Assembly: GCA_036172245.1 (NCBI GenBank)
Contig: JAYWIR010000001.1
Location: forward strand, 4,588,001 to 4,652,000
Direction: 5' to 3'
Origin: Raillietiella orientalis
Lineage: Eukaryota
Length of the DNA stretch: 64,000 bases
Of this stretch, positions 4,305-58,300 are shown piece by piece. The number at the start of each line of letters is the position of its first letter. Within the stretch, counting starts at the first letter, position 1. The notes under the pieces were generated by a model. That model did not search any database and had not been told where the DNA came from. It worked only from the letters and a program-made list of their open reading frames with translations. A program made the position numbers and the translations under genes.

Positions 4305-4480
4305 TATTTGGTTCTCAAAGTGCTCGAGGACCGTTCGCCTGGCGGCTGAAGCTCTTTGACGCTTTCCCGGCCACCCGAGGGTGAGTGTAGTAATTCTTCA
4401 AGTTAGGGGATAGCCCGGTGGAACCACCCTATGAATCCGGGAAAGCTCCGGAGGAAGGAGTCCGTTCCTCTCACGCTTCA
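4305..4480 (-). mobile_element. 3' tail fragment of the tRNA-headed SINE-like family
   Basis: Aligns by eye to 44010-44180 (cgcctggcggc...ctctttgac...ccacc...aattcttcaag...gaatcc...gtccgttcctctcacgc). Ends in an A-rich tail on the minus strand (gaaccaaataaaag). Confidence 0.75.
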
Positions 4481-4552
4481 GGATACGGCTACTGAGGCAT
4501 CCTTGGCATCCTTCTGTTCTACCATTCCCCCAATATAATCATTTGGCCTGCC

Positions 4553-4670
4553 TTGGAGGCCGTGTGGCTAGGTACCACGCGTCGCAAGTTGGAATCCCCC
4601 CGCAGGATGACGCTAGTTGGCCTGTAGGTTTCGGATGCGGCGGCACTGGTTGACACCCGGTCAGGCCGGG
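4553..4670 (+). mobile_element. 5' head fragment of the same SINE-like family
   Basis: ggaggccgtgtggct...gttggaatccccccgcaggatgacgctagttgg...cggatgcggc matches the head of the 38812 copy. Confidence 0.7.
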
Positions 4671-4869
4671 GAGTTTATTTATAGAAAATAAACACATATG
4701 TCTATGGCAGGACGTTTGATCCTGTTACGTCACTTGTAACTACGAGAGGGAACCTGCGGGGAACTGCCAATCAGACCAGCAGGGTTCGCTACGGCAGCAC
4801 AGGGGAAGGGGATACAAACAAAAAGAAGAAGAATAAAACAAAAAACATACAGTCCAAAAATGGGGGGAT

Positions 4870-5680
4870 TCGGGAAGGGATCACTGTGTGCTGGATGGTC
4901 TCCTCTGCATTCTTGTAAGGATGCCGGCAAGTTCCTGTTTCAAGACTCCCAGACGGGGCCATCTTGACGCTGTCCTCATGAAGAGGACAGCAAAAGAGAT
5001 GGCGTCCCTGTCATTGTGGCCTCCTCTGGAATTGTTCCCTGCGGCCACGACCCCGCCGCCCGGGAGGCAAACTGCTGCTAGGGAGGGATGCAGCCGGCGT
5101 GAGGGCGTCTTCAGACGGAAGAGGCGCTTTCAGACGTCTCTGGGGTTGCCTCCGGGGGCTTCGAGGGTCTCAGCAAAGCGTCCCTAAAGAAACCGGAGGG
5201 CACCTCCTAATGGACTGTGGTCCATTAGGAGGTGCAGGAAGGATTCCCGCTCCCTGCATCTTGCACAGTTCGGGTCCACCCCCTTCCCCCGTGTTCAATG
5301 ATGCCGGCGGGCGTTGCACGGGAGCCCCCAAGTTGCAGCAGCATCAGTGCCGACTGCTGCCACTTCAAGGGGAGAGTGCGGGTGTTCATGGGGCCGAGAG
5401 ACGGGGGCCACTGCAGTTCCTCCTCCGGAATACCCAGTTGCACGCCCCGGTGCAAAAGTCCACGGGGTCGAGCAATGGGGATCGCAGCGCTGGTGAGCTG
5501 GCCCGTCGTCCACTCTCCCAGTCGTCTCCTCCTGCCGGAGATCTCCACGGAGACCTTCCATTTAGCCGTAAGGCTGCTTTCGTCCATGTGTTCCCTAAGG
5601 GAGGGCAGCGCGGCGTCCAGGGAGGCTCTGCTTGTCGACGCGCTCTTCACGGGATCTTCCAGGATCTCCTGGGGCAACTG
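4870..5680 (-). mobile_element. Decayed L1/Tx1-type non-LTR retrotransposon, ORF2 C-terminal (zf-RVT-like) remnant
   Basis: Minus-strand frames give LKWQQSALMLLQ then WGLPCNARRHH*TRGKGVDPNCARCRERESFLHLL, a CxxC...ExxxH motif typical of L1/Tx1 ORF2 ends. Homologous to 61500-62830. Contains stops and frameshifts. Confidence 0.65.
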
Positions 5681-5687
5681 GTGGAAT

Positions 5688-6050
5688 CTGGAAACCCTCG
5701 GATGCCCCCGTTGACTGGCCGGAATTGGAAGTCCGCTCTCTGGGGTCCTCCCGGAACATCAAGGAGCGCCGGTTCCCTTCAGGGTTCTCCTCCGGTTGTG
5801 AAGATGGAGTCGTGGAGCTGGTTGGTACCTTTCCAGAGTGTGTGAGGAAGTGCGCCTCTCCCTTCGGGAAGCGCCCTCCAGCGAAATTCGAAAGCCCCTC
5901 TTCGGGGTTCTCTTCAGAGGAGCGATTTCCTTGCTGGTTCCTTCCAAAGAAGAAATTCGAGGAGCGTGATCCTGTTTCCTGGTTCCTTTCGGAGAAGAAA
6001 TAGGGAGCGGCCCCGCAACCTGGGGTGTCCCTCCGGAGGGAACAAGCGAG
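5688..6050 (+). mobile_element. Internal fragment of the SINE-like family, adjoining the LINE remnant
   Basis: ggatgcccccgttgactggccggaattggaag...ctccggttgtgaagatggag...ttcggggttctcttcagaggag matches the 43.2-43.9 kb and 54.9-55.3 kb copies. Confidence 0.8.
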
Positions 6051-9000
6051 GGTTCGTAAAATCAAATCCTTACCAGGCGGATGGACTGCCTTCCTGCGGA
6101 GCCTGCTAAAAAAAATCTCCAAGAATAGTTAAGATAAAATGCAATGCGATCGCGACGCATCGGATTGGCTGCCTGGCACCCCAGTCCAAGGGCTGGGTGC
6201 TTCTCTTTGTTTTCGGGACTGTCCAGAATAAATGATCCCACTTCTTGCTACCGCCACGTTTCTGGAAGCCGGTCACCTTCTCCGTTCGTGCCGCCACACT
6301 CCATTGGGGCCATCATTTCCCCCTCCCATCCTCCTCCTCCCCCAGTCCCTCCCCTTAGCCTTCCTCCCCTTCTTCGAATGAAGGAACCGGTGAAACCCCT
6401 CTCCCCCCTTCTCCCACTTCCAAGTCCAACGTCCTCCCTTTTTCTCTGGACTACAGCTCTCCTGGATATGGCGGCATCCCAAGTCTGCGGGCATCCACTA
6501 TCAGTTGTACACAAGTGATACTTGTGAGTCCATTCCTTGGCAGGAAACGTCCCGGCGCACCCGGATTAAAACACTCCATTGGGGCACGCTTCCCTGTGTC
6601 GAATTTTCTTTTTGCTCATTTAATCGGTCTTCTGAGTTTTCCCACTGTTTCCGCCACGGTTACTTTTTGTTTTTAAAAATTCGATGTTTATATATTCATT
6701 TAATGTATGTAAACACATATACATGAATATACATAATAACTACATATATTTTTTTATAACGTATGCATACCAAGAATTCAATCAGCAGCTTGTTCTTTTT
6801 ATTGATGGAATGTATGTCACTGAATCTTAATAAAATGTCTTTATTCCAATAACATGACTGCTCATAATACGTATGTAGATGAATATGGATAACCACGCAT
6901 ATTCAAACAAATTTGCACATTAGTCTACGTAGGATAATTGCCTGTGTGCGTGTGTGTGTTTTTATGATCTTTCTGGCTTTTGAACCACCAGATCCTGCGA
7001 CACATCTGATACGGACCCTAAGACAAGTGTTGCGATAGGGTATCTGAAACTCAGAGCTCATCGGAGCATCCGGGATCATAAAATTTTTAGCTTTATCAGT
7101 GCACACGTGCCGTCGCTTCTGCTTGTTTACAAAGAAACTGGCCAAATCTGGAGCCATCTGCATTGCCTGCAGAAATTCGATCACTCGGAGGAGATGCATG
7201 ATCAATGCAGTGAAGAGTGTCCCAGATAGCAAATATCAGAGGTACCTTCAAGTGCACCTGTGGAAACCTTATAAGGCAACACGGACATGCCCGCAACATC
7301 CTGACATCAAGGATGCAGTGCTCCCATTCCTGTCACTGACTATTAGCATTTCATGATGGATCACATGGTGATGGTGCTGAGGTCTCTTGGAGATGCACTG
7401 TACTGTTGAGAGAGGAGAGCCACATGATGGGAGGGGGGGAAGGGTCATAAGTTTGAAAATGGATGCCGAAAACGAAAAATCCTTCGTACCTTGAAATTTT
7501 CTTCCGGATAATCTCCCGTTTCCTCATTTCGCTTCCCCTGCAGAATTTGCTGGTTGATATGCGATCGGAAATTTGTGCCCTTTAAACAGAATTCGTCTAA
7601 ATTGTCTTCTTCGGATTCCACATAACGATAATTTCATTAGTGGTGGTGGCGATTTCCTGGTGGAATGAAATTGAGCATTTGGGGCAAAATTTGGCAATGC
7701 CTAGTTTGACCGGATTCCTGAAGGCTAAAAATAAAAAACAAAACAAACCTTTGTGAAAAATACTGAATTTTCTATGGTGATTACAAAACGTCGCCTTAGA
7801 TGCCAAGAGAGGCTCGGAACATTTGGGGATCCAAACCTGTGGATCACTAGCGGAGACCTCAGAATCAAACAAACAAACAAAATGAGAAATTTAAACGGAT
7901 CGATTTGGCCATGAATTCTTTACGTCCCTCCTCTCTTTACGAGTCCTTCGTTCCTAATGAAGCGACCCTTGAGAAAGTTCTTAGACCTCTGACTGTGAGA
8001 ACCACGATGGCACGGACTTCAGTACTTCCCAGAGCCGCACGTCTTGAGGTTCGAACGAGGGTATCCATCGCTGGTCAGAATTACAGCAAGGCAAAAAACG
8101 TTCTGTTTCCCCCCCCCCCCCTTCCTTTGCGATCCATCTCTTTGACACGTTCCCCGGACTCGACTGACAGCGAGGATGCCGTGAGCAGCAAGGCGGCTGG
8201 ACACCGACACAAGCGTGTTCCTCACTGCAGTGGACAGAGGCAACAGGGAGAATGTCGTGAAGAATTTTTTGATGCAAACTTGAGTGGAGCAGCTTGGCGT
8301 CTTCCGATGTAGCTCCTGCGGCTTTAAGAAAACGGGAACAAGGGAGAGACTTTGTGCTGGGCAATCTGGAAGGTCTTGAACAGGGGAGGTCACGCAGTGA
8401 CGCGGTTGCGAAAATTCTTAGGCATCGAGACGGAATCAATGAAGACTGAGTTTTCCTGTAAATATCGAGTTGTTTCCTGACAGGTTGAAAGCTCTCACAC
8501 TTTTCACTATTTCCAGTGTTTGCGCTTCGTGCAGAAGTCAGGAGCACTTTCCGAGGTACCACTTTGCTCACTCATGAGTTTCTGATTGAGATTGAGAAGA
8601 CGATTTCGAAAATGAAGAAGAAACAAACGAAAAAGAGCGAAAGGGGGATGGGGAAATCTCCTCTACCAAAAGGAGGATTCCGGATCAGAGAACGCAAAGA
8701 GCGCTCGAGGTCCCACGGACGCTTGAAGAACACGACACTGGGAGCAGAAAGACTTCCAGCTGAAGTTTCCAAGGGAAAATTCAGTCTTCTCTATTGTAGA
8801 GAACTGGACACATACCGCAGGTAGATACCTTTCAGTGGATAGATAAAGCCAACATTCTAAGAGTCGGTATAAACAGACACACAAATACGGATAGAATGGA
8901 TGTCATGCATGCAGTTATGTAAATGGATACAGTTGTTCGTGTGACATTGTGGTTGAGCATTGCAAAATTAGAAAGGAAAAAAATCTCAAAACGAGAAAGC

Positions 9001-12296: not shown

Positions 12297-15200
12297 TTAT
12301 GCTAGAAAACTGAATATGCTGCTTTTACTGCCACTTTCATTCACATTTGAAGTTTTGTCTGTTTTTGCCTTTTTAGATGGTGTTTTCTTATAAAAACTAA
12401 CGTCTACTGTGTCTGAAATTGTAGCTGATGCAGTTTCTTCCGTCTTGCTGAGTTTACTAGGGCTCACTGATGCAAACACAAAATTTCCTTTGGAATATGG
12501 GTTAGCAGATGCTGTTTTTGTAATTTCTGCCAGTTTATTCAGAGTTTGCTTGCTGCGACAAAGGAAGGAGCCCCAGGTGCCCTAACGTTTTATGAATTTT
12601 GGGTGAACAAAAACAAAATCATGCTTACATGCAGCTTATATGGATGTTTTGCTGATGGGGATAGGGATGATAGAATATTGGTTGCAGAACGCTGAAGAGT
12701 AGAAAATTTCTGTGCACCACACTTTCTTGCTTTTCTGTTACTTTCACTCCGAGAAGTTACAGGTGACTTCAGTTCTTCTTCCTAAGAAAAATCAGTCACT
12801 TCAAAACTACGTGACTCAAATCACATCTCACCTTATTCTGACTAGTTCTGAGCCACTGTTCCCTCTCAGATCGCAATTTTCTCCATTCACCATCGTCTAA
12901 TGGCAAATCCTCATTATCACAAAAATCCCACTGCATGGAGTGTACATTTTCTTCCCTATCTTGGGTTCCTATTAGGTAAAACAATCAAATGCCATCAGAT
13001 GCTCACCTAAATTTCGCCATCGGAACTTCCTCTGACGAATATGATCTGAATGTAGTTCTCCATTCTCCAGATAGAGCTCCTTGTAGAGAAGCAATTCTCT
13101 TTGGTCTTGATCTTGAAGCTGCTTTCTGAAAGCATCCAACTACTTCATAAATCAAATACCAACTTCTACTTACTGGTAGATACGACCAATTTCTTTGCGC
13201 AATTTTTCCTGCTCTTCAGGATCAATAGACGTGTCTTCTCGCCAGTCTTCTATACCAGCATCCTCCTCTGCAGAATCTTCATCTGAAGTAGCTTCTGAAC
13301 CTGACAGCTCAGCTTCCATATCCAAAAACTCATTTGGGCTAAAAATTCATCTTGTTTAAAAAATCTTCATGGTTTCACTCACATGAAGTTAGCAGATGAC
13401 TTGCTTGGACTTTTGGTTTTGGGAACTTGTATTTCATTCTCATCTGAATCATACAGTACTTCACCTCCTTCACTTGACTGCTCATCACATTCATCTTCAT
13501 TGTCTGCAATCAGAAATAAAACGATTGGTGTGTGAATACTGTCATACCTGATAGCAGCAAGATTTGTTGTCTTGTGAGACCAACTGGTTCCATTTCTTCA
13601 TCTGAACCATCAGATTCTGACAACTCTTTCTGACTGATTACCTGCTCATTTGTATGCTGCAAAAAAATTCAAATCGTTACCTATTGAAACGGCCAGAACA
13701 CAAATCTAAAAGTTCATCCATTGCTTCCTGGGTAGTGAATCTGTCAAACAGAGTATTATCCAGTTTGCTGTTGGGTTCCGACTTATCAAATGAATGGCAG
13801 TCTACAAAATTAGAAACATCAGCATCAAATACATTAACTTCAAAAAATTGTTTTCCAAAACTCAGCAAACAGAACACTTCTTGATTATGATATAAAGAGT
13901 TATAAATTATTCACACACTAAAACATGCTGAGAGTGCACACAAGACCAATGACAATGAACACATAACTAATTCTTAGTAAGTAGCATATGACATCCTTTA
14001 TTTTTTAATGACAAAGCAAATGTGAAATTTAAAATACACAATGAGCTACTGGTACCCACAAGTGGGGAATAAAAAACGTGAAAACCATAGACAATTGAAA
14101 TACAGAAGATACCACAGATAGCAAGCTACCTTTTGAGCTGGTTAAGTGTAGAAAAGAGAAAACTTCCGACCTTGGCAAGTTGAAATTGAAATTAAGATTG
14201 TTTTTAAAGTACCAGCAAACTTCGAACTGTTTGCAGACTAAAGGATGTTTTATTGGGTATTGGGAATGCCTGAAAGAGGGATAGGCAATAATAGAAAGCT
14301 TCTGGAAACAAATATTAATAATATGATGTTGATTAAGATTACTTTCAGAAAGCATAATGCATTCATATAAAGCATCTCATTTACACAAAAGGGAAAAATC
14401 CAAATAAGCTACTGTTATTATAAGAACATTGTATAAGACTTCAATACTTAACTGGTGATATGCTATTATTGTCGTGAGTTGTAATATGATGCACTTCAGA
14501 GATGTCATCGGAATCAGTCAGACTAGTCTGTGCTGCTGTGCTCTCTACTTAGCCAATACAGTTATGCATCCATAAAGCAAATTCCTCTCACCTTCTTCAG
14601 GTTCCACCAACAAATGCATTGTCTCAGCATCCTCTTCATCACTGGTGTCTTTTAAAGATGTAGCTGGAGAAGGACTGTAATGACTTTGTATCTGTTCAGA
14701 GACTTCATTTTCAATCTCGACTTCATCCAACTCCTCTGACATATCTTCTTCAGCTTCATCATCAATGAAAATGCTCCTCTTCTGGGTTTCACGGAATTTC
14801 TTTTCACTGTTTTGATTTTCTTCTTCACTGTCTTCTTCCTCCTCTTCACTTGATTCTGTTTCATTAGAAATGTATTCCTCTTCTTCTTCCTCTTCCTCTT
14901 TTGCTTTGCAGATAGAAGAGCTTTCTGAAAAACAGTCAAATCAAACCTAATACTTCCATCTTTGTCCATACTCTCTTCTTTTTCTTGACGCTTTTTCCAT
15001 TCCTCTCGACGTTTGCTTTGAATACGAGATCTCAATAGCTCTTTCAAATACCTTCGTTTATAACCTGGTTCAGAAGAGTGACACTCAGAACCATCTTTGG
15101 CAAGAGCAGGGCTGTATTGGAAACCATCCAAAATTAACTGCTCTTCACCCATCAGATCAGTTTCTTTTCTCAGAATGCTGCAACACAGTAGAATCATGAA

Positions 15201-16347
15201 ATACGTTTCATATCACTCACTTTACACGAACTGAAGTAGGAATGTGTGAAGCATTTTCAGAATGCTTTATGAATCGAGAAATTAAATGAGATATTCCACG
15301 TGTAGCCGAATAAGACTTACAATCATTAAGATCAATAATACCATTGGGGTCATCACATGATAGGAGCTTTGTATTTAAGTGGGGCTGGTCTGATGTCTTC
15401 TCAATCAAATCAGTAGAATTAGATGAAGATAGGCTTGTTGAATCACCTTCTCTTGCATGTGAATTTTCCTCAGTTGAAATTGCATGCATATCACTAAAGA
15501 AAACACTAGACTCTATACTGTGCTCTCTTTCTGATGAAACATGGGTATCCAAAAGCAAATGATCATTGTCCTCCTTGAGGGTTGTGGATTCTTGATCAGC
15601 AGAACAATTGCACTGAGAATCTGAATCATCAGAGTGATAAAAATTCTCAATGTTTCCTTCAAGCTTTTGCAACTGTGCTCTACAACTGAGTAAACTTAAA
15701 GTCAAGTCTTCTCACTTACATTAAATTGTCATCATTTAAACCTTTATTAAAGTGATCTGGCAAAATGAATTTTTTCCTTTTAATAAATTCGGAAAATGTA
15801 AGTTGCTTTGGTTTATGGTATGGAAGTGAGACATGAGCTTCCCGAAGCTGTTTTTGTATTTCACTATGTATCTTTCTGATTTCCTTGGCACTAAGTCTCC
15901 TTGAGAGATGCTGATAATTTATGTAATCTTTAATTTATTTACACATAAAAATATACGTACCTTCTTTTTTACTTTTGCTTTGTTCTTTCCGTCTATTTGA
16001 TTATTTTCTACATCTGAGTTATCTGCATTATATAGGTCAGGATTTTTATCTAAGTCATGAGGAAATTTCCCAGTTAAACTTTCCTCTGGAGGTTTGCTCT
16101 TTTGAGAATCTCTAATTTCGGAAAATCCCCCAGTATAAGTTTTACCAGCCTTTGGTGCACACTCGTTCAACTAGTTAAAGTGGAGCTTACTTTACGATTA
16201 TCCTAAATAAAAACTTACGACTAATGCATCATTTTCCTTATTATGTTCATTTTCCGTTTCTTCGTCACTACTTGATAATATGTTTCTTAACGTCTGTTTC
16301 TTCTTATGAACAATGCAATCAAACACTAAGGCTTCATCATCGGACAT
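12297..16347 (-). CDS. CLSPN: Claspin (Chk1 adaptor, replication checkpoint mediator), multi-exon
   Basis: Spliced by hand from ATG 16347 (MSDDEALVF) to TAA 12297. Claspin motifs: IHSEIQKQLREAHVSLPYHKPKQ, acidic tract, Chk1-binding TQEAMDELLDLCSGRF, FLDMEAELSGSE, RELLLYKELYLENGELHSDHIRQRKFRWRNL, GSFLCRSKQTLNKLA. GT-AG introns include 16218-16171, 15960-15911, 15719-15680, 15220-15178, 14971-14925, 13680-13634, 13547-13504, 13382-13339, 13173-13126, 13006-12969, 12831-12782 and 12629-12582. Boundaries of the ~0.6-kb intron near 13.86-14.45 kb are uncertain. Confidence 0.93.
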
Positions 16348-22646: not shown

Positions 22647-24713
22647 TTATTTGAAGATTTTTCCCTGATTGAAAGGACGCCCATTTTCATCTGCTCCTTC
22701 ATGATTAAAATACTGCTCCACAAGTTTTTTGCATTCCTCAGAAGCAGGATCTAATTTTTTCCAAACATAGGACTCATAATCAACTTTCCAGTCTTCAGAT
22801 AGCTAAAGAAAATTAAAACATGCATTTTTGCTGCTAATATGACAAAAATACAAACTTCAAATACTAGATCGTGGCCTCTCCACAACCATACTCCTGATAT
22901 AGAACTGTTATTGTTGCTACCAAATAGGCACACAGATGCAAAGGCATTTTTACGTAGCTTATCAAGTCTCTGGAACATTCCTGAAAACACTTTGAAAAAA
23001 CAAATGCAGCTATTGCATACCAGAAACAAGATTACAGCTCATGAATACTTGTGTCAGTTCATCATTGTATTTGTAATCGCAAAACCACAAAGACCAATGC
23101 TGTGGATCAAAGTGCTTCCAAAAGTATGGTATTGATACTGCTGTGTCTTCATTTGAGTAGCATCGCTTGAAATCATCCAGAACAAATGTGCTATAGATAA
23201 GTAGTAAAAGTTTCAATAAAATACTAATTTACCCTTTGGGGTATTTTTCAAAAGGGTCAGCCTTCTTTGGTTCTTCAGCTAAAGCCCTTTCTGTTTCATC
23301 TAATTCCTCATTCTCGACTTTTACTGCTTTTTCAGGTTTCTTGGGATTCTTTTCTTTTTTTTTGGCATTTTCTGCCTTAGTTTTCGATTGAAACACCGCA
23401 TACTTCGTAGCATCAAATTCTGCCATCTTTTCACAGAGTTTAAGCTCTCCAACAACAGCCTTAACCTCAGGCTGGTTAACCATCGTTGAAAACCAACGAT
23501 TCACATTACAAAATGGTGCTCTATACATGTGTTATCCGAAGTATCAAAGCAGATTTAATATCACCTGTATTTAGGATCCAAAACATATTGATATGCTAGC
23601 AACAAAGTACAACAAACACAAATATCTGCCAGGGTTATTTTCTCTCCAACTAAGAAAGTATGGTGTAAAAGATGCCCATTTAATGTTGTCAGGGCTCTTT
23701 TCACATCTTCTTTTGCATGATCAGTTGTCTACTTCAATTACATCACCAGTGCAAAGTGTTTCCCTACCTGTTTATTGTATGCCATTATGCCCATACATGG
23801 AAATACCCATGTACAAGCTGCTGGCAAAATCTCACTATCAGCAAAACTCATCCATTGAATAATCTGTGCTTCTTCCAAATTGCTCTCTCCTCGTAACTGT
23901 TCACTGGCCACTTTAAATGTATACATGAATAGAGGTGGGAAGGAAGCAAATAGGTACTTACAATAATATGCAATTGCATTACTTTCAAAAATACACACAC
24001 CATCACTGCCTTCAAACGTAGGAACCTACAAAAAAGCTGTATGAGCAATCAATTATCATTTGTTCTCACAAGATGCAAACTGATGTGATGCACACAACAG
24101 TTGAATGTTATGATATTTATTTACCTCCTTTTGTTATGTCTTATTTTTAATTAAGACATCTTTGAAAGAGGGCTTGATATGTGGCTTACCTTACCAAAAG
24201 GAAACTTTTTCAAAAATTCTTCCGATTTATTTGTTTCTCCGAAAACAAAATCTTCAGCTATTTTTACATCCGCTTTGCTATACTGTGCAGCAATCAGGGC
24301 TTTATAAGCCCTGAAATTTTCGGGATATGTGTAAATTACCTGGAAATACACCACCATTACTGCTACGAAAAAGTGCATTCACATGGTACATGAATTTATG
24401 AATTCGATTCCTCGCGCAACCCCACATGCACTGCTTAGAAGTTTATAATCCAAATTTTCCTTATTACCCCCGTATAAAATTCTTTTTCAATAAGTCAATA
24501 GGCATTATGATTTTCCAATGTGGTTTAATTGAGCACTTTCTGCTAATATTTCAAAAATAACTGCAAGCTAAAAAAGCAATATTAAAATAGTTATGCTTAC
24601 TCAGTTTTTGTCTCTGACGCTCATTTTATTTACATCACTAAAATCGCATATTATAGTTCAAAAGAACACCGGAATTTAAAATAATAAGTATGCATACGTA
24701 CCCCAGAAACCAT
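22647..24713 (-). CDS. EEF1G: Elongation factor 1-gamma (eEF1B gamma), 9 coding exons
   Basis: Exons 24713-24702, 24339-24190, 24025-23962, 23910-23768, 23728-23565, 23520-23233, 23190-23021, 22980-22856 and 22802-22647, all GT-AG and in frame. Protein: [25 protein letters not shown]...FPFGKVPTFE...FESNAIAYY...NVNRWF...[15 protein letters not shown]...[22 protein letters not shown]...FNQGKIFK* (GST-like N-terminus plus EF1G domain). Confidence 0.98.
24058..24175 (-). ncRNA. Probable box H/ACA snoRNA in eEF1-gamma intron 2
   Basis: Sense strand: hairpin 1 (cctcttt/aaggagg lower stem, tgtctta/taagaca upper stem), H box AAATAA, hairpin 2 (tcataa/ttgtga lower stem, aactg.tgtg/caca.cagtt upper stem), then ACA+3 nt. 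Each upper stem sits 14 nt from its H or ACA box. The intron is 164 nt while the six downstream introns are 39-53 nt. Confidence 0.75.
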
Positions 24714-29867: not shown

Positions 29868-32470
29868 ATGCAACAGCATCCACTTGTTAATTTGCAAAAT
29901 CAGTCACAAATTAGTTCAACTGGACAACAACAGATTCCACCAGCTCAAGTGCAGTCTTCTCAACCTATTCAGTCTCAGCCATCAACTTCTCAAAATCAAC
30001 AACCAGTGCAAGATTCGAAAGCAGATCCTGTATTTAAAATCAAGAGTCTGATTTGGCCTTTAAAAGAAACTATTACAGTAAGTTAGAAAATGAATAATAA
30101 ATCTACAGTAATTTTCAAAGCAAATCTTTGAAACTTAGTGCATTCACAGTAACAATACGAGTGAATTGCTGCTGGTATACGTGTTAGTCCATTCTCACTT
30201 CAGAAATAGCTTTTCCTTTAAGGTAGTCCTATTGAATAGCATTATCGTTGACATGATCAAATGACAGAGATCGATACGTATTTCACCCGACTATTGTATC
30301 AAATCAATGTGTGAAATTTGTTTACTCATTTTGTAAAATTAGAGGTTACACAATTTTGTTTTGTGTTATACTAAGCAGTATTTTAGACCATTCTACAGGT
30401 GAATGAATACTTTCTGAATTGATAAAAGCAATGTGTGCATTCTAAATTATACACGGATTCTATTGTGTTCGTTTGTATTTTCATGTATTTGTCTTGAAAT
30501 TCTTGAATTTCATTTCTGAAGTCTTGGATGCAAATGTTTTTGAATTGTACTTAAATGATATATCCTTGAAAGTATATTTCTAGATAATCCTCCCCCAAAA
30601 TGGCATGTAAAGAATTACCTGGTTTTCAACAACCTGTTGATCGAAGTTTTGATTAGTTTTTTCACATTCCAAAACTGTTCTGTGGTCACTGAAGGAATTT
30701 CTTAGTTGTCAGCATCAGAATTCTTTGTAGACTACGGAAGTATATGTTTGAACTAAATCAAGAATATGTTTTAAGTACTTCTTTTTAATTTTAAGTTTAA
30801 TTTCTATGATGGATGAGATGAGATGAGATGACTAAGCATTGCATCATTTAATGATAAAACCATTCAATAAAACCTTTAATAAAAGTAATAAGTCATTTAG
30901 TAAAATCATTTAATGATGGTTTTATTGAATTTTTCAAGAGAACTCTCCTGAACTCTCTTGCCCAAGAGAACTCTCTTGAGAATTCAGTAAAGACCATCAT
31001 TAAATGGTTTTACTGAGTGACTTGTTGCTTTTATTAAAGGTTTTATTGCTTGGTTTTATCATTAAATGACTGAATGCTTAGTCATCTCATTTAACAATTG
31101 TACAGATTTCTTAAAAGCACTTCAATAAAAATTTCAAAGCATGTTGGAAAAATGTTTAAATTTCAGAATTGTAATTCAAATTTCAGGCTAATCCTAGAAT
31201 ATTCAGGTGAATCCTTGATATTCTTTTATTTGTGGTCTTACTGTTGTTTTGTATAGTTATCCAATTCGTTATGAAAGTATCAGTTATTTTCTCTAGTTAT
31301 TAAGATGTATGTTGAAAAGAAGAAATGAAGAAAAAGCTTTTGCTAAGATTTGGTAGCCTTACAATGCATTCAGTTTACAGTGTGCAAAGTGATGTATTGG
31401 AATAAATGGAGGATGAGGTGCAATTCATGATGTGATTGTTTTTTTTTTTTTTTTCCATTTGGGCTGGAAGTTGTAGTTTTACTTTAAAAATGTGAGAATG
31501 TTCTGGGATTACTTTTAAAGCTAATTGGTATTGTCAATTTGGATAACCCATGCATTGTGTAAAGTGGTTCAAAGTAAAGTACAACATCTTTTGTGATTTA
31601 AATTAATATTTAAAACCTTTTTCTAGGGTTTGCCTTAAATTAGATTGATGCGCTTTACAACTATAGAGGGAAAACTTTTCTGTCATTTAAAATAACCATT
31701 ACATGTGTAAGGAAATACTCTTAATTAAGGACTTTGCCTGCAATATTTTGACATGTGCTAGGCAAATGGTTGAGTAGACATCATATTGTTTTATCTATCA
31801 AGAAATCAGACATATCTTGTTCTTGAATTCATATAAAACAGTATTTTTTTAATAAAGTAAAAATGAAATAAGGAGATGAAATTATTGAACTTCATAAATT
31901 TTGTATAGATGTTATTCATTTCTGCTTATTATTGCAGTCCACATTTCGTTTGGCAGCCCAAAACCTATGTGTGAATGGTGCCATTGATGTTGGTACTTGG
32001 TGAGTTATCCTCTGTTTATTTAAATAATTCCTGTTAATAAGGAAGGGAAGTGACCAGCCCATTGCACGATTTGATAAGAGTTTAGAAGATTTTTGTGTTT
32101 ACTGTGATCAAATAGAGTTTCTCTTAGTAAGAGTACTTTTATGTGTAAATTCTCATTCATAATAAATATGACAGAGAACTGCTTTGGAAGTACAGACTCA
32201 GGGTATTCATAGCCAACGGTCTACACAACTGCCAGTAGCCCCTCAGAAAACTGAAGCATCAGTTGGTACTACACAAGCTCCTCAAGAGCCTTCTTTGAGC
32301 TGTATGCAGTATATGGCTTTAGTGCACTCGCAGGTGAATCAGCTATTTATGACATTATTTTTATTTTGTTCATTGGAATAGCATATTTTCATTGTATTTA
32401 GGTTGGTTATGTACGTGAGATACAAAATTCCTTAATTGAAGTAGCCCACGACATTAATCCAGAACAATAA
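29868..32470 (+). CDS. MED29: Mediator subunit 29 (intersex homolog), 5 coding exons
   Basis: Exons 29868-30077, 31938-31999, 32042-32126, 32175-32333 and 32402-32470. Q/P-rich N-terminus, then DPVFKIKSLIWPLKET...AAQNL...IDVG...ARFDKSLEDFCVYCDQIEFLLRTALE...LSCMQYMALVHSQVGYVREIQNSL, matching the Med29/Ix domain. The start codon is less certain. Confidence 0.92.
30823..31090 (+). repeat. Long inverted repeat (~115-bp arms, ~30-nt spacer) in MED29 intron 1
   Basis: Left arm 30823-30940 (atgagatgactaagcatt...ttcaagag) is the reverse complement of right arm 30973-31090, apart from ~7 substitutions, two small internal loops and two 1-nt bulges. Confidence 0.95.
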
Positions 32471-32475
32471 AGGAC

Positions 32476-32991
32476 ATGAGTGTGAATAAATGTACTTCTG
32501 AATCTGCAGAACCCCTAATAGAACAGTCTTGGCTTGATAGTCATTTGTTGGCATGTGTAGATAATGATATCTCTGATCTCAGCATCCAACAACAAATTGA
32601 ACAACGTCTACAAGGCAAACAATGGAAGGACTATCTTAAGAAGTATAGTTGCAGTGATTGTGATGATTCTCAAGCAGTGCAGCTGACCAAGCTAAGAGTT
32701 GTGAGACATCGTATTCGTAATCACATGTTGTCCCCCCCTTATCAATGTGAATTTTGCTCTGAGGAGTTTCCCAACAAACCTGGTCTGCAACGCCATGTAA
32801 AATACCATGTGGAGCAAGCGAATTTTGCTTGCAGTATATGTGGTCAGACCTTTAATAAAGGGAATCTGGCCAAACAGCATATCATCAGCCACCTTTTGGG
32901 AAAACTGTCTTGTTCGTGCAGCTTCAGTACACGTTCCGAGTTTCATTTCCATCAAGGAGGCAAGATCTATCGTTATCGGGTGTGTCTGTAG
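32476..32991 (+). CDS. C2H2 zinc-finger protein (171 aa, 3 fingers plus a partial fourth), single ORF
   Basis: CSDC...HRIRNH, YQCEFCSEEFPNKPGLQRHVKYH, FACSICGQTFNKGNLAKQHIISH, then CSCSFSTRSEFHFH. A 516-nt open frame in AT-rich DNA. Confidence 0.8.
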   Translation: MSVNKCTSESAEPLIEQSWLDSHLLACVDNDISDLSIQQQIEQRLQGKQWKDYLKKYSCSDCDDSQAVQLTKLRVVRHRIRNHMLSPPYQCEFCSEEFPNKPGLQRHVKYHVEQANFACSICGQTFNKGNLAKQHIISHLLGKLSCSCSFSTRSEFHFHQGGKIYRYRVCL

Positions 32992-38811: not shown

Positions 38812-39520
38812 GGAGGCCGTGTGGTTACGGTGGTCTCCGCGCGTGGCACCATGCGTCGTGGGTTCCGAAATTCACCCCACAAGATGACGCTGGTTGCCCT
38901 AAGCTCATCCGGGTGCGGCACTGGTGCCGGTTGAAACCGGATGCCCCCGATGAGGGCCGGGACAAATGGGAGTCGACTACCGGGTCCTTCCAGGAATCAC
39001 GGAGTGGGAGTTCCCCTCCGGTTGTGAAGGAGCGGACCCCCTATTCCGGGAGAACCCTCCGCGTCGTACTGATGGAGTAGGTGTGTCGCTATCAACTCTC
39101 CAGAGAGTGCAGAGAAGCGAGCCGATCCCTTCGGGGAAGCAGCGCCCTTCTGAATTCGGAAGTGTTTCTTCTGGATTCTCTTCAGAGGAGTAAACAGGAG
39201 CGGATCCCTTGCAGGGGATCCCTCCGGGGAAGAAATTCCAGGATCGGATCCTTTCCGGGTTCCCTTCAGAGAAGAAAGAATGGAGCAGACCCCCCCCGGG
39301 GGCCCTGCGGAGAGAATAAGGAAGGAGATTCTCTTTTGGATTACCCTTCGGAGACAACCAGGGTGGAGGCGATGTCCTGATCTCCATTTCCGGGGATCTC
39401 TCCCCAAGCGTTAGAGGAACGGACTCCGAGTCCTTCCTGGATTCATAGGGCGGAATCCTCCCGGGGTACCCCCTATCTTGAAGAATTACCCACCCTCGGG
39501 TGGCATGGAACTGTGTCGAA
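38812..39520 (+). mobile_element. Near full-length SINE-like copy (single B-box-type head)
   Basis: Colinear with the minus-strand copies at 43.1-44.7 kb, from ggccgtgtggtt to cttgaagaattac...caccctcgggtggcatggaac. GC-rich island in AT-rich DNA. Confidence 0.85.
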
Positions 39521-39860
39521 GAACTGCGAAGACAGAAAAGGATTTCCATCATCCTACAGACCAGTAGTAAATGCACCTTTCGTTCAGACTAACGAAACTA
39601 ATACTGAGGTGTTTCCATCCATCATACTTGTCAACATCTGCTTGGTGAAGAAGTAGAGGAGGTTGAGAATTTAGATTTCTTATTAATGTGAAGGATATTT
39701 GCTGTTATTTATACCAACGGTGAAGAGATTTTGAATTTATGTGTCCCTGAGTTTACCAGATGGCAAATACCAATTTCGTTTTACAGAGAGGCATATGCTC
39801 AAACTTTATGCTTAAGTCGCACCAATCCATAACATTAACCAAGAATAATCAAAAGCATAT

Positions 39861-43144: not shown

Positions 43145-43916
43145 GGTTTTCTTTGTTCTTTTTTTTTGGTTCGCCAAGTGCTGAAGAACCGTCTGCATTT
43201 TTCAGGAAGAGGGCTCACGGAGTTCTTTAACTCTTCCCACGTCACCCGAAGGTATGTGGAAATTCTTCAAGTTGCGGGGCAGCCCTGGAGGGATCACCCC
43301 ATGAATCCAGAAGAAGGGAACTTCTTTCTTGTTCCCTCCGGCACGGTCTCCCGGAGGGGAACACTCCTCCTTTCTTGTTAGAAACCGCTACCAGTGCCGC
43401 ACCCGAATTGAACCCGGAAAGGATCCGCTACTGAATTTCTTCCCCAGAAGGAACCACAAGGGAGCCGCTCCTTGTTTCTTCCTCTGAAGAGAACCCCGAA
43501 GGGACGCTTTCGAATTTTCTCTAAAGGGTCGCTCCCCTAAGGGAGCAGCGCGCTTCCTCACACTTTGGAGGGGTGTCGATCCACCAGCTCCATGGTACGA
43601 AATAGAGGGTCCCCCCTTCGGAGAGGATCGCTCCATTTTCACAACCGGAGGGAACCCCGAAGGGAACCGGTTCCTTGGTTCCTGGAATGACTCCTCAAAT
43701 TCCAATCCCGGCCAGTCAACGGGGGCACCCGGTTTCCAACAGTGTCGCCGCACCCGAACGCTACAGGCAAACCAGCGTCATCCTTCAGGGGGGACTCGAA
43801 TACCCACAACGCACCCCCTATTTCTCGGCGTCGATCCTTCCCCGGGCGGGATTCGAACCCGTTCCACCAGGTGCCGCACGCGGAGAAACCGCAACCACGC
43901 GGCCGAAGACGCGGGC
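43145..43916 (-). mobile_element. Full-length SINE-like copy with tRNA-like head and A-rich tail
   Basis: Sense strand starts GCCCGCGTC...TGGTTGCGG (A-box-like)...GGGTTCGAATCCCG (B box) and ends gaaccaaaaaaaaagaacaaag. Confidence 0.85.
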
Positions 43917-44004
43917 AATGGTGTTATGGATAGCGGTTTCGTGCCGACCAGCTTGGATGGAAACCCTTTTTGAGCTCTTTTCTGTCTTCGTTGTTTTCCT
44001 TCCA

Positions 44005-44721
44005 GTTTTTTTTTTTTTTGGTTCGCTGACTACCTCAAGAGGCGTTGAACGCCTGGCGGCTCTTTGACACTGTTCCATGCCACCCAAAGGTGCATGTAAT
44101 TCTTCAAGATAGGGGGTACTCAGGGAGGGGACCTCCCTACGAATCCAGGAAGGGTTCAAGTCCGTTCCTCTCACGCCTGGGGAGGAATCCCTCGAGGGAA
44201 ACCTCCACCCTGGTTGTCTCCGAAGGGAACCTCCAAGGGAATCTCCTTCCTTATTCTCTCCGGAGGGACCCCCGAAGGGATCCATTCCCGGTTTCCTCCT
44301 CTGAAGAGAACCCCGAAGGGACGCTTCCGATATTTCTTAGAAGGGCGCTCCTGAAGGGAGCGGTACGCTGTGTACTCTGGAGAGGTACCACACCTACTCC
44401 ATGGTACGAGACGGAGGGTCCTCTCCGAAACGAGGTTCCCTAGTCCGCACAACAGGAGGGAAATCTTCACTCCTTGATTCTGTTTCCTGGAAGGACCCGG
44501 AGGTCGACTCCCATTGTCCCGGCCCTCATCGGGGGCATCCGGTTTTAACCGCTACCAGTCCGCACCCGAATGAATAGGGGCCAACCAGCGTCATCTTCCG
44601 GGAGGAACTTGAACCCACGACGCACCTCTATTTCTCGGCGTGGATTCTTGTCGAGTATTCGAACCTGCAACGTTTGGTGCCACGCGAGCGGACACTGCAG
44701 CAACACGGTCGCCGACGCGGG
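44005..44721 (-). mobile_element. Second full-length SINE-like copy, head-to-tail with the previous one
   Basis: Same head (cccgcgtcggcgaccgtgttgctgc...GGTTCGAATAC), same body, and a gaacc + poly(A) tail. Confidence 0.85.
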
Positions 44722-45579
44722 AAAGGGTGTTATGGGTAGGGTTTCCGTGTTCACCAACCTTTCAATGCTGGAAACGCGCCGAAAAATTTCGAGGCAACGA
44801 GCCCTATGGTGCTGCCGCCACACTCATTCCTTCTTCCTGCCAATACGCGACTTTTCCTCGACCTAATCCCGCTTCTCCCCTGAGCAGCATCAGTGGCCCG
44901 CATCGGCGCTGAGGTCACGAGGACGAAAGTTCCAGGACTTCCAACCGTATCTCGGTGGAATTGTATACGACGCTTCGCGCTGTGTTTTCCCAATGACGTC
45001 GATATTGGGCTGGAGTGGAATAACGACACAATGGGAATCAGAACTCTCGAGAACGGGCAAATTTTCGGGCTAGAATTCGCTGCGCTGTGGTGGACTCTCT
45101 GATGCGGGACTGCGCACTGATCTTTCTGCACCAAATCCTCTGCGAACAACGGTGCGACTCTGTTCGGGATTCATTCCTCCCATCAGTTTCGTCAACTCGG
45201 AAATTCTTGGTTGCAGGAGTCCGACACCGTGAAAGGTGAAAGAAAGAAGTTTCAGGAAGCCGGACAACCTTTTCCGAAGAACAGGAGATCACTTGCAACT
45301 TTTCAAGACTGCTTCCTTGGAAGCGGGGTGCGCAGGAAGGATCACTGGGAAACGGTTCCACTGCGGCAGCCTCACTTGATTTGGGCATACCTCTGCAATG
45401 CCTCCAGCTGCGTCCCTTGCAGTGCTCGGCTGTCTTCGCGGGATCGTGGCGACATGGGCGGCCAGGAGAAGAGATCAGAATCAAAGGAACGTCGTCCACT
45501 GGGCGACAGCCTTCTTGAAGGCCGCCTTGAGATTACCTCACCTGGGTAACCTTAGGGAAGAACTTGTCAGCATCCTGTC

Positions 45580-45810
45580 CAGTGTGTCGTACCTTCGTAC
45601 TGTCAAAGCAGGTTCATGAGCTGAAAGAGGTGGTTTTCTCCTGTGGATGAGAGGTGGTTCGAAGGCAATCCGTCATGCTCCTGAACTCTGAGCAGTATGA
45701 TTGACGAGTTCTAGTACCGACCGGAAGAAGAGAACGTCCGTCGATTGCTCTTCGCTAGTTCTACTTCCTCAAAGAAAGGATGCATTGGGAAGGGGATTTT
45801 CTTCGTTATC
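45580..45810. repeat. Local duplication, copy 1 (internally deleted relative to 46627-47230)
   Basis: 45580-45687 matches 46627-46729, and 45689-45810 matches 47108-47230. Confidence 0.85.
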
Positions 45811-46626
45811 ATTGTCCAGGATGCTGAGAACGCCTCCCAGCGATCCCATCCGCAATCCCGTCTCCTTGCCCAGCGGAACTTTTCCTCCCGTTTTTCTTTC
45901 CTGCTTGCTTGTTTGTTTTCCAGTTCTCTCCATTCCCCGTCGCCGTGGAAACGGGTCTCGCCGGTCTACGCACCGGTCATGGCAAGTTTCGAGTACGTGG
46001 TGCAGCCAAGTGTTTCACCCCGCCAGAACATTTAAGTGTATTCTTATTATTCTTGTATAACAAATGGCCAGGGAAAACCGGGTGGAAAAGCTTGGTTTGG
46101 GTTTACAGAAACGATGATGTTAAGAGGAAGTGGACTTCGTGCAATGCAAGACTCTAAAAGCTGCTGTTTTTTCACGAGGTCGGAACGCATCCAGGAAATT
46201 TAAAGTATCTCAGGCCATGACACAGGGTTTCAGAGAAGTGTGCCCGAAGAAATATCCACCTTCGCAAAGCGAGTTGATATCCTTTCATGAAGTGCGAGCA
46301 GATGGAGTTTCGTGAAGTACAGTGATTGCAAGCGTGTTGCTAATGGAGATCTGCGAGTGCTGCAGGGATTCCAATGCATCCCTTCGATTGGCCTTCTGCA
46401 AAGCGCAAAAGTTTTTCTGCCGACGAGGTTTCCTGTTGGGCCGCGGGAGAAGCAACAGGGAAAGTTGATTTCAAAAGCCCCAGCGCTCAGGAGTGATCCC
46501 ATCGTTTTCCAGCTATTCGTCAGAGAGGAGAAAAAGAAGCTGGAATTTTTTCCCACTCCTTTCCCTGCTACGAAAACGATCGCTATCATTTACTGGCAGT
46601 TGGGAAGAGTGCCAGAAGGAATACTG

Positions 46627-47230
46627 CTGTGTTTGTCGTACCTTCGTACTGTGAAAGCATGGGCTGAAAGAGGTGGTGTTCCCCTGTGGATGAGAGGTGG
46701 TTCGAAGGCAATCCATCATGCTCCTGAACACGTGCCGCCGCCGTTGGATTCACTGCAACCAAGCACTCGCGATCGGGAACTCGTGTGTCGGCGTCATGAA
46801 AAGCAGCTGCCAAGAAATCATTCCGACTGCGGCTTGGCTGCATTCGAAATTCTCGGGGAAAGATGCCCGTGCAGTTGCAGGGATAGAAGTCTTGGCTCTT
46901 TGTGAGCGGGGACACATGCTACGTCCTTCTCAAACTGTGCAGGTTCATGGCATCAACTTGACTGGTATGGGGACAGCAGTCATTTTGGCTGAAACCAGAG
47001 AGCAGGATTCCGCATTGTCGGACTGAATTTTTCCATGACTATGCCGGAGCGTCACGTGTCAACGTCACGCGCTGTTTGCACTTGACCTTCTATGCAGCAA
47101 AAGACACTGAGCAGTATGGTTCCGAATTCTAGTACTGACCGGAAGAAGAGAACGTCTGACGAGTGCGCCTCGCCTAGTTGTACGTCCTCAAAGGATGGAT
47201 GCATTGGATGGGGATTTTCTTTGTTATCCA
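46627..47230. repeat. Local duplication, copy 2 (contains an extra ~380 nt)
   Basis: Shares gtcgtaccttcgtactgt...gatgagaggtggttcgaaggcaatcc and ctgagcagtatg...gaccggaagaagagaacgtc blocks with copy 1. Confidence 0.85.
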
Positions 47231-54300: not shown

Positions 54301-54864
54301 AAAAAGGTGTTCTTCGATTCCCTTCTTCTGTGTATCTAAGTAGCAATGTACAGGGTGGACGAGTCGAACGCTTTGATCTGATTTTCTCAAACAGGCAAGA
54401 ATATTCTCCACTTCCTCCGAAGGCCGCCAAGACCAAGCAGTGGATCCGGAATGAAAGCAGTCAGGTCACCCCAGGTGGACGCGGAGGTGAACGGATTTTG
54501 GAATAAGAGGAATTGGCGAAGGAGGTGTGGGCATCGTTAGCTAAAATGCCAACTCGACGGGCCGTCGACTGAAAGCCCACCTGAAGTGACATGCACCCTC
54601 AAATGACGTTGACGCCGTCCACGAAGGATGTTGAACGTCCACGAAGGTCCGTCCAGGCAAACGGTTCTTCAGTACTTAACGATGGATGGGGGTGTGAAAA
54701 ATCCAGTCAGAGGGAATCCTTTCCCACGGAGCATTTTTAGCGACGGTGGAATTAGAAACCTGCAACTGTTCGTCGCAGATTGTTCTGGCATCCTTCTACC
54801 ATTTCCTCTGCAAATTTTTCACGCGCTTAACCAAGCTTGATGAGTGCTGTTTTTCCTCGAAGGA

Positions 54865-55288
54865 AGCCCGCTAGGGAACCGCTCTTGGTTTCTTCCTCTG
54901 AAGAGAACCCCGAAAGAAGACTTTCCTATTTCTCTGGAGAGCGCTTCTTGCACTCTGAAGAGAATTTACCCGAAGGAAGTACCAACTAGCCCCATGGTAC
55001 GGCTCCCATCTTCACAACCGGAGGGGAACCGGCGCTCCCTGATTCCTGGAATGACCCCGGAGGGTCAACTTCCAATCCCGTCCAGTCAACGTGAGCATCC
55101 GGTTTCCGCCAGTGCCACACCCGAAGTCCCTGACTCCAACCAGCGTCATCCTGAGGGGGGAGGGAAATCGCAATCCACGACTCCTCTCCTCCCATTTCTC
55201 GGCATCGATCCTTCTTCAGGCGGGATTCGAACCCGCGACGCTCTGTGCCACGCGCGCTGACCGCAGCCACACGACCGCCGACGCGGGC
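54865..55288 (-). mobile_element. 5' part of a SINE-like copy
   Basis: Sense strand GCCCGCGTCGGCGGTCGTGTGGCTGCGG...GCGGGTTCGAATCCCGCC...ggatgacgctggttgg...ctccggttgtgaagatgg. Confidence 0.85.
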
Positions 55289-57525: not shown

Positions 57526-57664
57526 TGGACCGATCCCTGAGGTGCTGGAATACCGCGACAGGAGAGGAGCAAGCCCCAAGCATCCCGTCCACTTCCAAAA
57601 AGTAGTTTAACATACTGGTCACCAGATAGATGGGACATCAGATATTAAACAGATAAGAACAGAT
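57526..57664 (-). pseudogene. U2: U2 snRNA 3' portion (from ~nt 39), degenerate
   Basis: Minus strand ATCTGTTCTTATCTGTTTAATATCTGAT...TTAAA..CTTTTTGG (Sm-site-like)...GGGGCTTGCTCC...GGTATTCCAGCACCTCAGGGATCGGTCCA follows U2 stems IIa-IV, with a deletion in stem IV and a mutated loop IV. Confidence 0.92.
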
Positions 57665-58300
57665 TTATTTCAAGTATTTCTGTATTCTTACATGAAAAGA
57701 TGAAGTGAATGGCTCTGCTGTATCTCTCTTTCTTCCGCTGACAGGTTCCTCACCCTTCAAGAGTTTGAGGAGGGATTTTCTTTCTTTCCAGCTGTTCGTG
57801 GATTGATGGCAACGTACAGAGGATGTCATAGACGGTGCGTCCAGTAGATATCCCTGCTGTATTGGATGCATGAGGTCACCTTCAAGTGCCTTCTTGTCTC
57901 CGCATACCGCTTTGGGATACCTGGCTCACGGATTACTCCACCATTGCGTGGGTTCCAGGTTCCCAGTGTACCGACGATAATAGCTTGACATCCTTTCTTC
58001 CTCAGCAGTTAGGCGATCTCTTGGTATTTCTAGTCTTTTTTTTCGTTCTTGAGAGGCTGAATACCTCCTCGGTGTTGTCGAACGGACAGGCGACTTCAAG
58101 GATGACCATTCTTTGAGACCTTGTTTGCCTTCTGCAGCACCAGATGAGGCTGGAGTCGCACACAGGCACAAAAACATTCGCCCGCAACAGACTCCACCCT
58201 GCGGTATCCTTTGTCGCTGCAGGCAACCTTGCCACGATGCATCACGCCTAGCTGTGTATAGGGGAGAAGGTCTCACGCAGTGATGCAAGCCTAATGCAGT
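57665..58300 (-). mobile_element. 3' end of a Utopia-type (NeSL/R2-group, RLE) U2-targeting non-LTR retrotransposon, 5'-truncated and decayed
   Basis: Frameshift-corrected translation LHHC...YTARRDAIVARL...LQPHLVL...VILEVACPFDN...K..KY...IIVGTLGTWNPRN...YSRDIYWTH* (stop at 57826-57828) is a restriction-like endonuclease domain. The ~160-nt 3' UTR ends ...gaaataa and joins U2 directly at ATCTGTTCTT. Confidence 0.88.

Follow-up and report, generated by a model that had tools for sequence, protein, structure and literature searches.

A near-palindrome with one-sided arm differences in a MED29 intron of Raillietiella orientalis: a possible scar of error-laden fold-back DNA synthesis

The first intron of the gene encoding the Mediator subunit MED29 (the intersex homologue) in Raillietiella orientalis harbors a near-palindrome of 268 bp, whose two arms differ from one another in a strikingly one-sided manner. 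The gene lies within a 64-kb stretch of contig JAYWIR010000001.1 (assembly GCA_036172245.1, positions 4,588,001 to 4,652,000 of the forward strand), which is referred to here as the window and in whose numbering all positions are given; the palindrome occupies positions 30823-31090. We tentatively propose that it was left behind by a single event of fold-back DNA synthesis, its right arm being an error-laden copy of its left arm, a reading which we favor at somewhat less than even confidence. If this is correct, the event would have been either an intrastrand template switch in the course of replication or snap-back synthesis during end joining.

An earlier note on this DNA, made from its letters, had described a long intronic hairpin at these coordinates, and its existence was confirmed by repeat search, gapped alignment, and RNA folding. 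The ungapped repeat search delineated the arms as positions 30823-30950 and 30963-31090 (128 nt each, 84% complementary, with a spacing of 12 nt), and the gapped alignment and the minimum-energy RNA fold were concordant in pairing positions 30823-30941 with 30972-31090. Across 117 aligned positions, the stem comprises 108 Watson-Crick pairs, seven positions at which a left-arm T faces a right-arm G, and two non-pairs, such that palindrome symmetry at the DNA level is only ~92%. The T·G sites are located at 30886/31027, 30889/31024, 30896/31017, 30898/31015, 30906/31007, 30925/30987, and 30933/30980, while the two non-pairs are a T·T and a neighboring T·C at 30863-64/31049-50. The stem further contains two single unpaired bases (T at 30930 and G at 30992), and a complex of 3 nt (GCA versus CAG) occupies positions 30841-43/31070-72. 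A C·A at 30948/30965 appears in the ungapped alignment only and forms part of the apex loop in the fold.

The right arm is the reverse complement of the directly adjacent upstream sequence. A 7-nt inverted pair, CAAGAGA/TCTCTTG, closes a loop of 30 nt, which is itself a mosaic of short copies in either orientation; the spacer repeats which had been pointed out previously correspond to two direct copies of CAAGAGAACTCTC[C/T]TG at the apex (repeat family D3). The left border is continuous with the flanking sequence, because a (GATGA)5 array runs across it. The element is AT-rich and non-coding, with only short stop-to-stop frames, and no other inverted repeat of comparable quality was detected in the 64 kb searched, nor were any tRNA-like parts found there. 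In an Rfam search of the window, no microRNA family reached its gathering score for the hairpin, the best sub-threshold matches being to the plant MIR hairpin models MIR2593 (49.8 bits; threshold, 96.2) and MIR2670 (45.5 bits; threshold, 117).

Folding of both strands bore out the expectation that RNA of the + strand keeps its pairing at the T·G sites. The + strand fold reached −163.1 kcal/mol (z score of −23.9) versus −146.8 kcal/mol (z score of −20.8) for the − strand, an advantage of 16 kcal/mol, and the hairpin remained the dominant structure when folded within 901 nt of the intron.

All nine substitutions in the stem (seven T·G, one T·T, and one T·C) are situated at a T of the left arm. 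Consequently, 9 of the 41 left-arm T positions are substituted, as opposed to 0 of the 76 other positions (Fisher p = 4.2e-5), and the two 1-nt indels also both fall within T runs of the left arm, where GGTTTTA contrasts with GGTCTTTA and ATTTTTC with ATTCTC. The G·C pairs, in turn, are unchanged (26/26). The earlier note had counted some seven isolated substitutions, each with T on the left and G on the right, and both this count and the strings it quoted proved correct. That these seven isolated transitions all belong to one of four classes (P = 2.4e-4) exceeds chance, which supports the prior argument that neutral decay should not generate such one-sidedness. As a control, 19 other repeat pairs of the window, which derive from an old GC-rich dispersed family and are 69-89% identical, were found to display all four transition classes in similar numbers, together with many transversions.

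The asymmetry is also evident between the arms. When the transitions are read as A>G, 7 of the 39 A residues of the right arm have changed, compared to 0 of the 50 in the left arm (p = 0.003); the corresponding value when they are read as C>T is p = 0.02. Furthermore, the T·G sites are all located at or past position 30886, i.e., toward the apex (p = 0.016), with five of them within 21 nt, and this apex-proximal part is the one that fold-back copying would make first. CpG deamination was ruled out, since a CpG context was present at 0/7 sites in either arm. Symmetric strand-biased mutation, whether associated with transcription or replication, was also ruled out (p = 0.003 to 0.02), because both arms would be affected.

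The direction of change was assessed using two short motifs which recur within each arm, thus providing four copies per motif as an outgroup. The left-arm copies of ATTCAATAAAACC are identical to each other, while the corresponding right-arm copies are AAGCAATAAAACC and TTCAGTAAAGACC; likewise, the left-arm copies of ATCATTTAATGAT are identical to each other and those of the right arm are ACCATTTAATGAT and GTCATTTAATGAT. Because the left copies match and each right copy bears a private change, the right arm (3′ on the + strand) is the derived one at all five polarizable events (5/5; p = 0.06, two-sided). Two of the T·G sites, 30987 and 31007, are polarized in this manner; on the + strand, each reads as A>G in the right arm. 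The earlier note had deduced a right-arm gain of A>G at one site from an internal repeat, a polarity which holds and which is extended here to a second site.

According to the fold-back reading, the 3′ end of the + strand, terminating in TCTCTTG (30972-78), would have annealed to CAAGAGA (30935-41), 30 nt upstream. The annealed end would then have copied the left arm, representing the upstream intron sequence, backwards across ~112 nt to form the right arm, following which the new strand is presumed to have rejoined at 31090/31091. Copying would have been faulty specifically opposite template T, with the misinsertion of seven G, one T, and one C and, in T runs, the addition of one base and the skipping of another, such errors falling mainly within the first ~56 nt synthesized. 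The arm specificity follows naturally from a relationship of template and copy, because errors would be present only in the copy and would be set by the template base. Since G opposite T corresponds to a U·G wobble in RNA, the sense transcript would retain a 119-bp stem as a by-product, and any dicing or editing of the resulting double-stranded RNA (dsRNA) would presumably be incidental. Given the lack of a target-site duplication, a left border within (GATGA)5, and the patchwork nature of the apex, a local event fits better than the insertion of a transposon.

Published polymerase error spectra fit the arm differences in kind, and an enzyme with such a spectrum may have been responsible for the copying. 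For the theta DNA polymerase of humans (Pol theta), T·dGMP is the commonest mispair (77/194 substitutions, 42e-4; PMC2441791, Tables 1 and 3) and T·dTMP is the third commonest (13e-4), while single-base additions and deletions are reported there to be frequent and to occur mostly in homopolymer runs (PMC2441791). Opposite T, Pol iota has been described to insert G more than A (PMC3031609).

With regard to mechanism, the closest analogy appears to be with templated snap-back or template-switch insertions. The snap-back form of microhomology-mediated end joining of the synthesis-dependent type (SD-MMEJ) described for Drosophila is primed by inverted primer repeats, with the insertion being incorporated into a longer inverted repeat (PMC5728401), and intrastrand template switching is reported to give rise to reverse-complement repeats and RNA hairpins, the pairs being corrected in line with the 5′ base (PMC8794818). 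The palindrome described here shares with snap-back SD-MMEJ (PMC5728401) and with template-switch mutations (PMC8794818, PMC5453318) a loop closed at its base by a short inverted primer pair, new DNA which is the reverse complement of the adjoining upstream sequence with the 5′ arm as template, and a product consisting of a longer inverted repeat that is able to form an RNA hairpin. It differs from them in the length of the tract, which is ~112 nt as opposed to the short, non-processive synthesis of the published model, and in that the copy, produced in an event that we infer from its product, would contain ~8% errors, nearly all of which are opposite T.

Several observations weigh against this proposal. 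The error frequency would amount to 7/39 template T residues overall and to 7/23 in the inner part, a density which is ~40-70 times the in vitro T·dGMP rate of Pol theta (42e-4) and which could be reached only by a Pol iota-like enzyme or with a skewed deoxynucleoside triphosphate pool. Moreover, SD-MMEJ is reported to involve snap-back synthesis of a non-processive nature, with an engineered example of 4 nt (PMC5728401), a length which is far exceeded by the ~112-nt tract, and the GCA/CAG complex is located outside T runs. No empty-site allele or orthologous intron was found which would mark the right arm as an insertion. The weight of the polarity is modest, as five of five events give just the two-sided value stated above; the polarity also assumes that the internal motifs are older than the large repeat, and later template-switch homogenization inside the left arm would mimic it. 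Finally, the single-copy status of the element holds for the window, and it is possible that a transposon consensus carries the same differences.

Because the error density, the tract length, the lack of an empty allele, and the question of copy number weaken the case for a fold-back copy, a miniature inverted-repeat transposable element (MITE) or a foldback-type non-autonomous DNA transposon stays a serious rival. In such a scenario, which we regard as unlikely rather than implausible, the element would have inserted into the intron, its arm differences either stemming from a master copy or having arisen after insertion. MITEs and foldback elements are the commonest origin of intronic hairpins in animal genomes. 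The palindrome resembles them in its size of 268 bp, its AT-richness, its lack of coding capacity, and in consisting almost entirely of long terminal inverted repeats, and it occupies the sole expanded MED29 intron, the others being 42-68 nt in length. Conversely, no target-site duplication of at least 2 nt is apparent at its borders (…GATGAG on the left and TTAACA… on the right), although one might lie hidden within the (GATGA)5 array of the left border; the left terminus merges into this flanking array, and no second copy or fragment was found in the 64 kb. Collections of metagenome, viral, and prokaryote contigs were scanned for exact patterns of the element with 0 matches, a result which constitutes weak evidence against a MITE because these collections are poor in animal DNA. 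A two-block gapped pattern retrieved five loci from the metagenome contigs (L001 to L005) on the basis of the seed only, and these were rejected as copies of the element, as three match across 18 nt or less and two show nothing at an E value of ≤0.01, indicative of chance matches. The element thus differs from known MITEs and foldback transposons in having neither a target-site duplication nor a further copy in the sequences searched, and a transposon origin alone gives no reason for differences that are confined to left-arm T.

The earlier note had suggested a selected dsRNA, of which the continued pairing of the + sense RNA stands, while the bias between left- and right-arm A (p = 0.003), the non-wobble mispairs and indels at left-arm T, and the apex clustering do not accord with it. 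One version of this interpretation holds that the hairpin is a precursor of endogenous small interfering RNA (endo-siRNA), in which the left arm supplies guides that are fixed by a target in trans, and the right, passenger arm accepts only changes that keep pairing (A>G). We consider this improbable. Hairpin RNA (hpRNA) loci exist in Drosophila, where they form their own transcription unit, and the element resembles them as a long, near-perfect intramolecular dsRNA arising from an inverted repeat; it differs in that it is positioned in the intron of a housekeeping Mediator gene. A stem of 119 bp which is near-perfect on the transcribed sense strand and folds appreciably better than its antisense counterpart, along with wobble changes that are limited to one arm, would be in agreement with a guide/passenger arrangement, as would the observation of 0 C>T among the seven passenger-arm changes (39 A versus 14 C sites, P = 0.12). 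However, the right arm also carries changes that break pairing (the T·T and T·C, two bulges, and a 3-nt internal loop), and the changes are concentrated toward the apex instead of being spread over the stem. The window yielded no antisense target, perfect antisense complementarity to an open reading frame (ORF) extending over at most 12 nt, in a zinc-finger ORF (32848-32859), and a young repeat is expected to be near-perfect even without selection. As selection for pairing alone permits G·U in both directions, it leaves the arm bias, the disruptive changes, and the apex clustering unaccounted for and is, consequently, not the best fit; the guide/passenger variant accounts for the arm bias, yet not for the pairing-breaking changes. 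In the fold-back reading, which ranks as the most likely origin, the U·G pairs would be a by-product of the commonest polymerase mispair.

A related and quite improbable possibility is that the locus is a natural analogue of engineered G:U hpRNA, i.e., an endo-siRNA precursor within the pre-mRNA of the sex-determination cofactor MED29. In engineered G:U hpRNAs, changes in one arm are reported to preserve the hairpin at the RNA level while the repeat in the DNA is disrupted, whereby self-silencing is avoided, and the authors of that work suggest that G:U pairs occurring in natural microRNA precursors may have the same rationale (PMC9263138). The palindrome shares with these transgenes a single transition class in one arm, the U being contributed by the 5′ arm and the G by the 3′ arm, and wobbles which keep the RNA stem while the DNA inverted repeat is broken (PMC9263138). 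The transgenes described there (PMC9263138), in contrast, are designed to change every C of the sense arm, corresponding to 18-26% of positions as opposed to 7/117 here, and do so as C>T in the 5′ arm, whereas the polarity of the present element points to A>G in the 3′ arm. Were the analogy true, the 5′ arm would represent a constant source of guides and the 3′ arm would be altered only at adenosines, such that the RNA stem survives and the DNA palindrome is broken, an arrangement that would lend stability to the locus and spare the host gene repeat-induced silencing.

With inverted repeats hyper-edited by ADAR, the adenosine-to-inosine editing enzyme, the element has in common that A>G changes are clustered along the sense strand of an extended dsRNA. 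It is conceivable, if very improbable in our judgment, that a hyper-edited transcript of a once-perfect hairpin was fixed in DNA through a retro-copy or RNA-templated repair, in which case the seven sense-strand A>G changes, five of them within 21 nt, would record the editing. The 5′ neighbor of the changed base is A or T at six of the seven sites and G at one, and the 5′-neighbor preference of ADAR is compatible with A or T. This agreement matches the background, however, as 19 of the 32 unedited right-arm A residues also have A or T on their 5′ side. In addition, 0/50 left-arm A residues are changed (p = 0.003) even though both arms of a dsRNA are ADAR substrates, and neither the A>C and A>T at 31049-50 nor the indels are products of deamination. 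A reintegrated edited copy, which the earlier note had offered as an alternative, fared poorly on these grounds and because both a poly(A) tract and a target-site duplication are absent from the flanks; nor was an established route from edited RNA to germline DNA of the same locus found in the literature examined. Thus, the element departs from hyper-edited inverted repeats in that its changes are genomic, restricted to one arm, and found alongside A>C, A>T, and indels. Formally similar is the adenine-specific mutagenesis described for diversity-generating retroelements (PMC7826257), but these are prokaryotic, involve direct repeats, and need a reverse transcriptase.

Lastly, the palindrome rests on one assembly, and certain long-read and amplification protocols are known to generate palindromic chimeras as artefacts. 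A fold-back chimeric read in the consensus, with the arm differences as read errors, is nonetheless the least probable of the explanations considered. The repeat is small and is located inside an otherwise intact gene, and another public DNA run (X1) yielded a 151-nt contig which exactly matches positions 31077-31227 across the right border, albeit with only 14 nt of it within the arm. This contig has a depth of 2.6, and almost nothing else of the 3.5 kb compared was recovered from the run; four further pieces of 18-39 nt, with 0-7 differences, continue unlike the window. It is therefore concluded that DNA of the source organism, or of a near-identical one, is present in this run in trace amount only.

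The identity of the host gene is based on Pfam Med29, which is matched collinearly by the exon pieces (profile positions 2-20, 42-69, and 70-119), while exon 4 gave no match to the longer proteins of the protein collection. The spliced coding sequence spans 585 nt (194 aa) with 0 internal stops, and all introns conform to the GT-AG rule. As had been noticed before, only one of them is long, the four introns measuring 1860, 42, 48, and 68 nt. The hairpin is located midway within intron 1, with 745 nt separating it from the donor and 847 nt from the acceptor, on the sense strand, and judging from this position it is presumably transcribed. Because it sits in a transcribed intron, the pre-mRNA should carry the 119-bp dsRNA, which would be expected to encounter Dicer-2 and ADAR, as in an arthropod. 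Intron 1 also holds a 20-nt unit repeated 2.2 times (consensus, TTCAGGCGAATCCTAGAATA) at 31182-31223 and a T16 run at 31439-31454. Outside the hairpin, the 20-nt repeat, and the T16 run, nothing in the intron matches any other part of the window. The coordinates of the gene and of the parts of the palindrome are presented in Table 1.

Table 1. Features of the MED29 gene and of the near-palindrome in its first intron
Feature	Positions	Strand	Remarks
MED29 (intersex homologue), 194 aa	29868..32470	+	Exons 29868-30077, 31938-31999, 32042-32126, 32175-32333, 32402-32470
MED29 intron 1, 1860 nt	30078..31937	+	GTAAGT...TTGCAG; spliced by coordinates
(GATGA)5 microsatellite	30808..30831	+	Begins in the left flank and covers the first 9 nt of the left arm
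Left (5′) arm	30823..30941	+	T at all 9 substitution sites; T runs holding both indels; putative template, probably nearer the ancestral state
CAAGAGA, innermost stem segment, candidate break-distal primer repeat P1	30935..30941	+	Pairing from the fold; role as P1 putative
Apex loop, 30 nt	30942..30971	+	Reiterated AACTCTCYTG / CAAGAG pieces, direct and inverted
TCTCTTG, candidate break-proximal primer repeat P2	30972..30978	+	Pairing from the fold; role as P2 putative
Right (3′) arm, derived	30979..31090	+	G at seven sites, with C and T occupying 31049-50, and an extra G at 30992; from the gapped alignment, no partner for 30930 and CTG complex at 31070-72

Should the palindrome indeed be a fold-back copy, it would constitute a germline record of more than 100 nt of snap-back synthesis bearing the error signature of the enzyme involved, namely, G opposite T and slippage in T runs, and a single DNA event would have generated a strand-specific RNA hairpin within a gene. 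A fold-back or template-switch route has been proposed for the origin of new hairpin RNA and microRNA genes (PMC8794818). Given that the commonest polymerase mispair looks identical, a one-sided U·G pattern is insufficient to argue for selection on RNA structure, and this calls for caution in genome scans that infer such selection from U·G one-sidedness. If the hairpin is processed, it would represent endogenous dsRNA linked to MED29 expression. The wider significance of these considerations rests on one locus and is not established.

A number of other features were observed in the window. Immediately downstream of MED29, an ORF with two C2H2 zinc fingers (32476-32991, + strand; Pfam zf-C2H2_4, 1.7e-8, and zf-C2H2, 6.2e-6) starts with an ATG 5 nt past the stop codon of MED29 (32468-70), whose strand but not frame it shares, and an AATAAA-like stretch overlaps the gap between the two, which could represent a very tightly packed gene pair or a dicistronic arrangement. 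Exons of elongation factor 1-gamma (EF1-gamma) are located at 23229-24025 on the − strand, among which a 100-aa exon (23229-23531) is most similar to arthropod proteins, with ~41-54% identity to the named full-length matches, the groups represented being odonates, cockroaches, a cricket, a mayfly, an ostracod, and a decapod. The DNA thus probably comes from an arthropod lineage with sparse coverage in public protein collections, in which close relatives are missing. Overlapping long open frames of 131-186 aa at 14545-15711 (− strand), rich in E, K, R, and S, probably correspond to a large exon of a charged low-complexity protein.

The old dispersed GC-rich repeat family is represented at 4119-6128, 38852-39588, 43403-44745, 54850-55288, and 61843-61973, its members being 69-81% identical and present in both orientations, and repeat pairs of 85-89% identity are found at 45582-47228. 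These GC-rich repeat blocks have a GC content of 44-58%, compared to ~30% in the genic region near MED29, and the long stop-free frames which they display in several phases are probably a composition effect. A U2 spliceosomal small nuclear RNA gene (RF00004; 57.1 bits, gathering score of 46) is located within a GC-rich block at 57540-57703 on the − strand.

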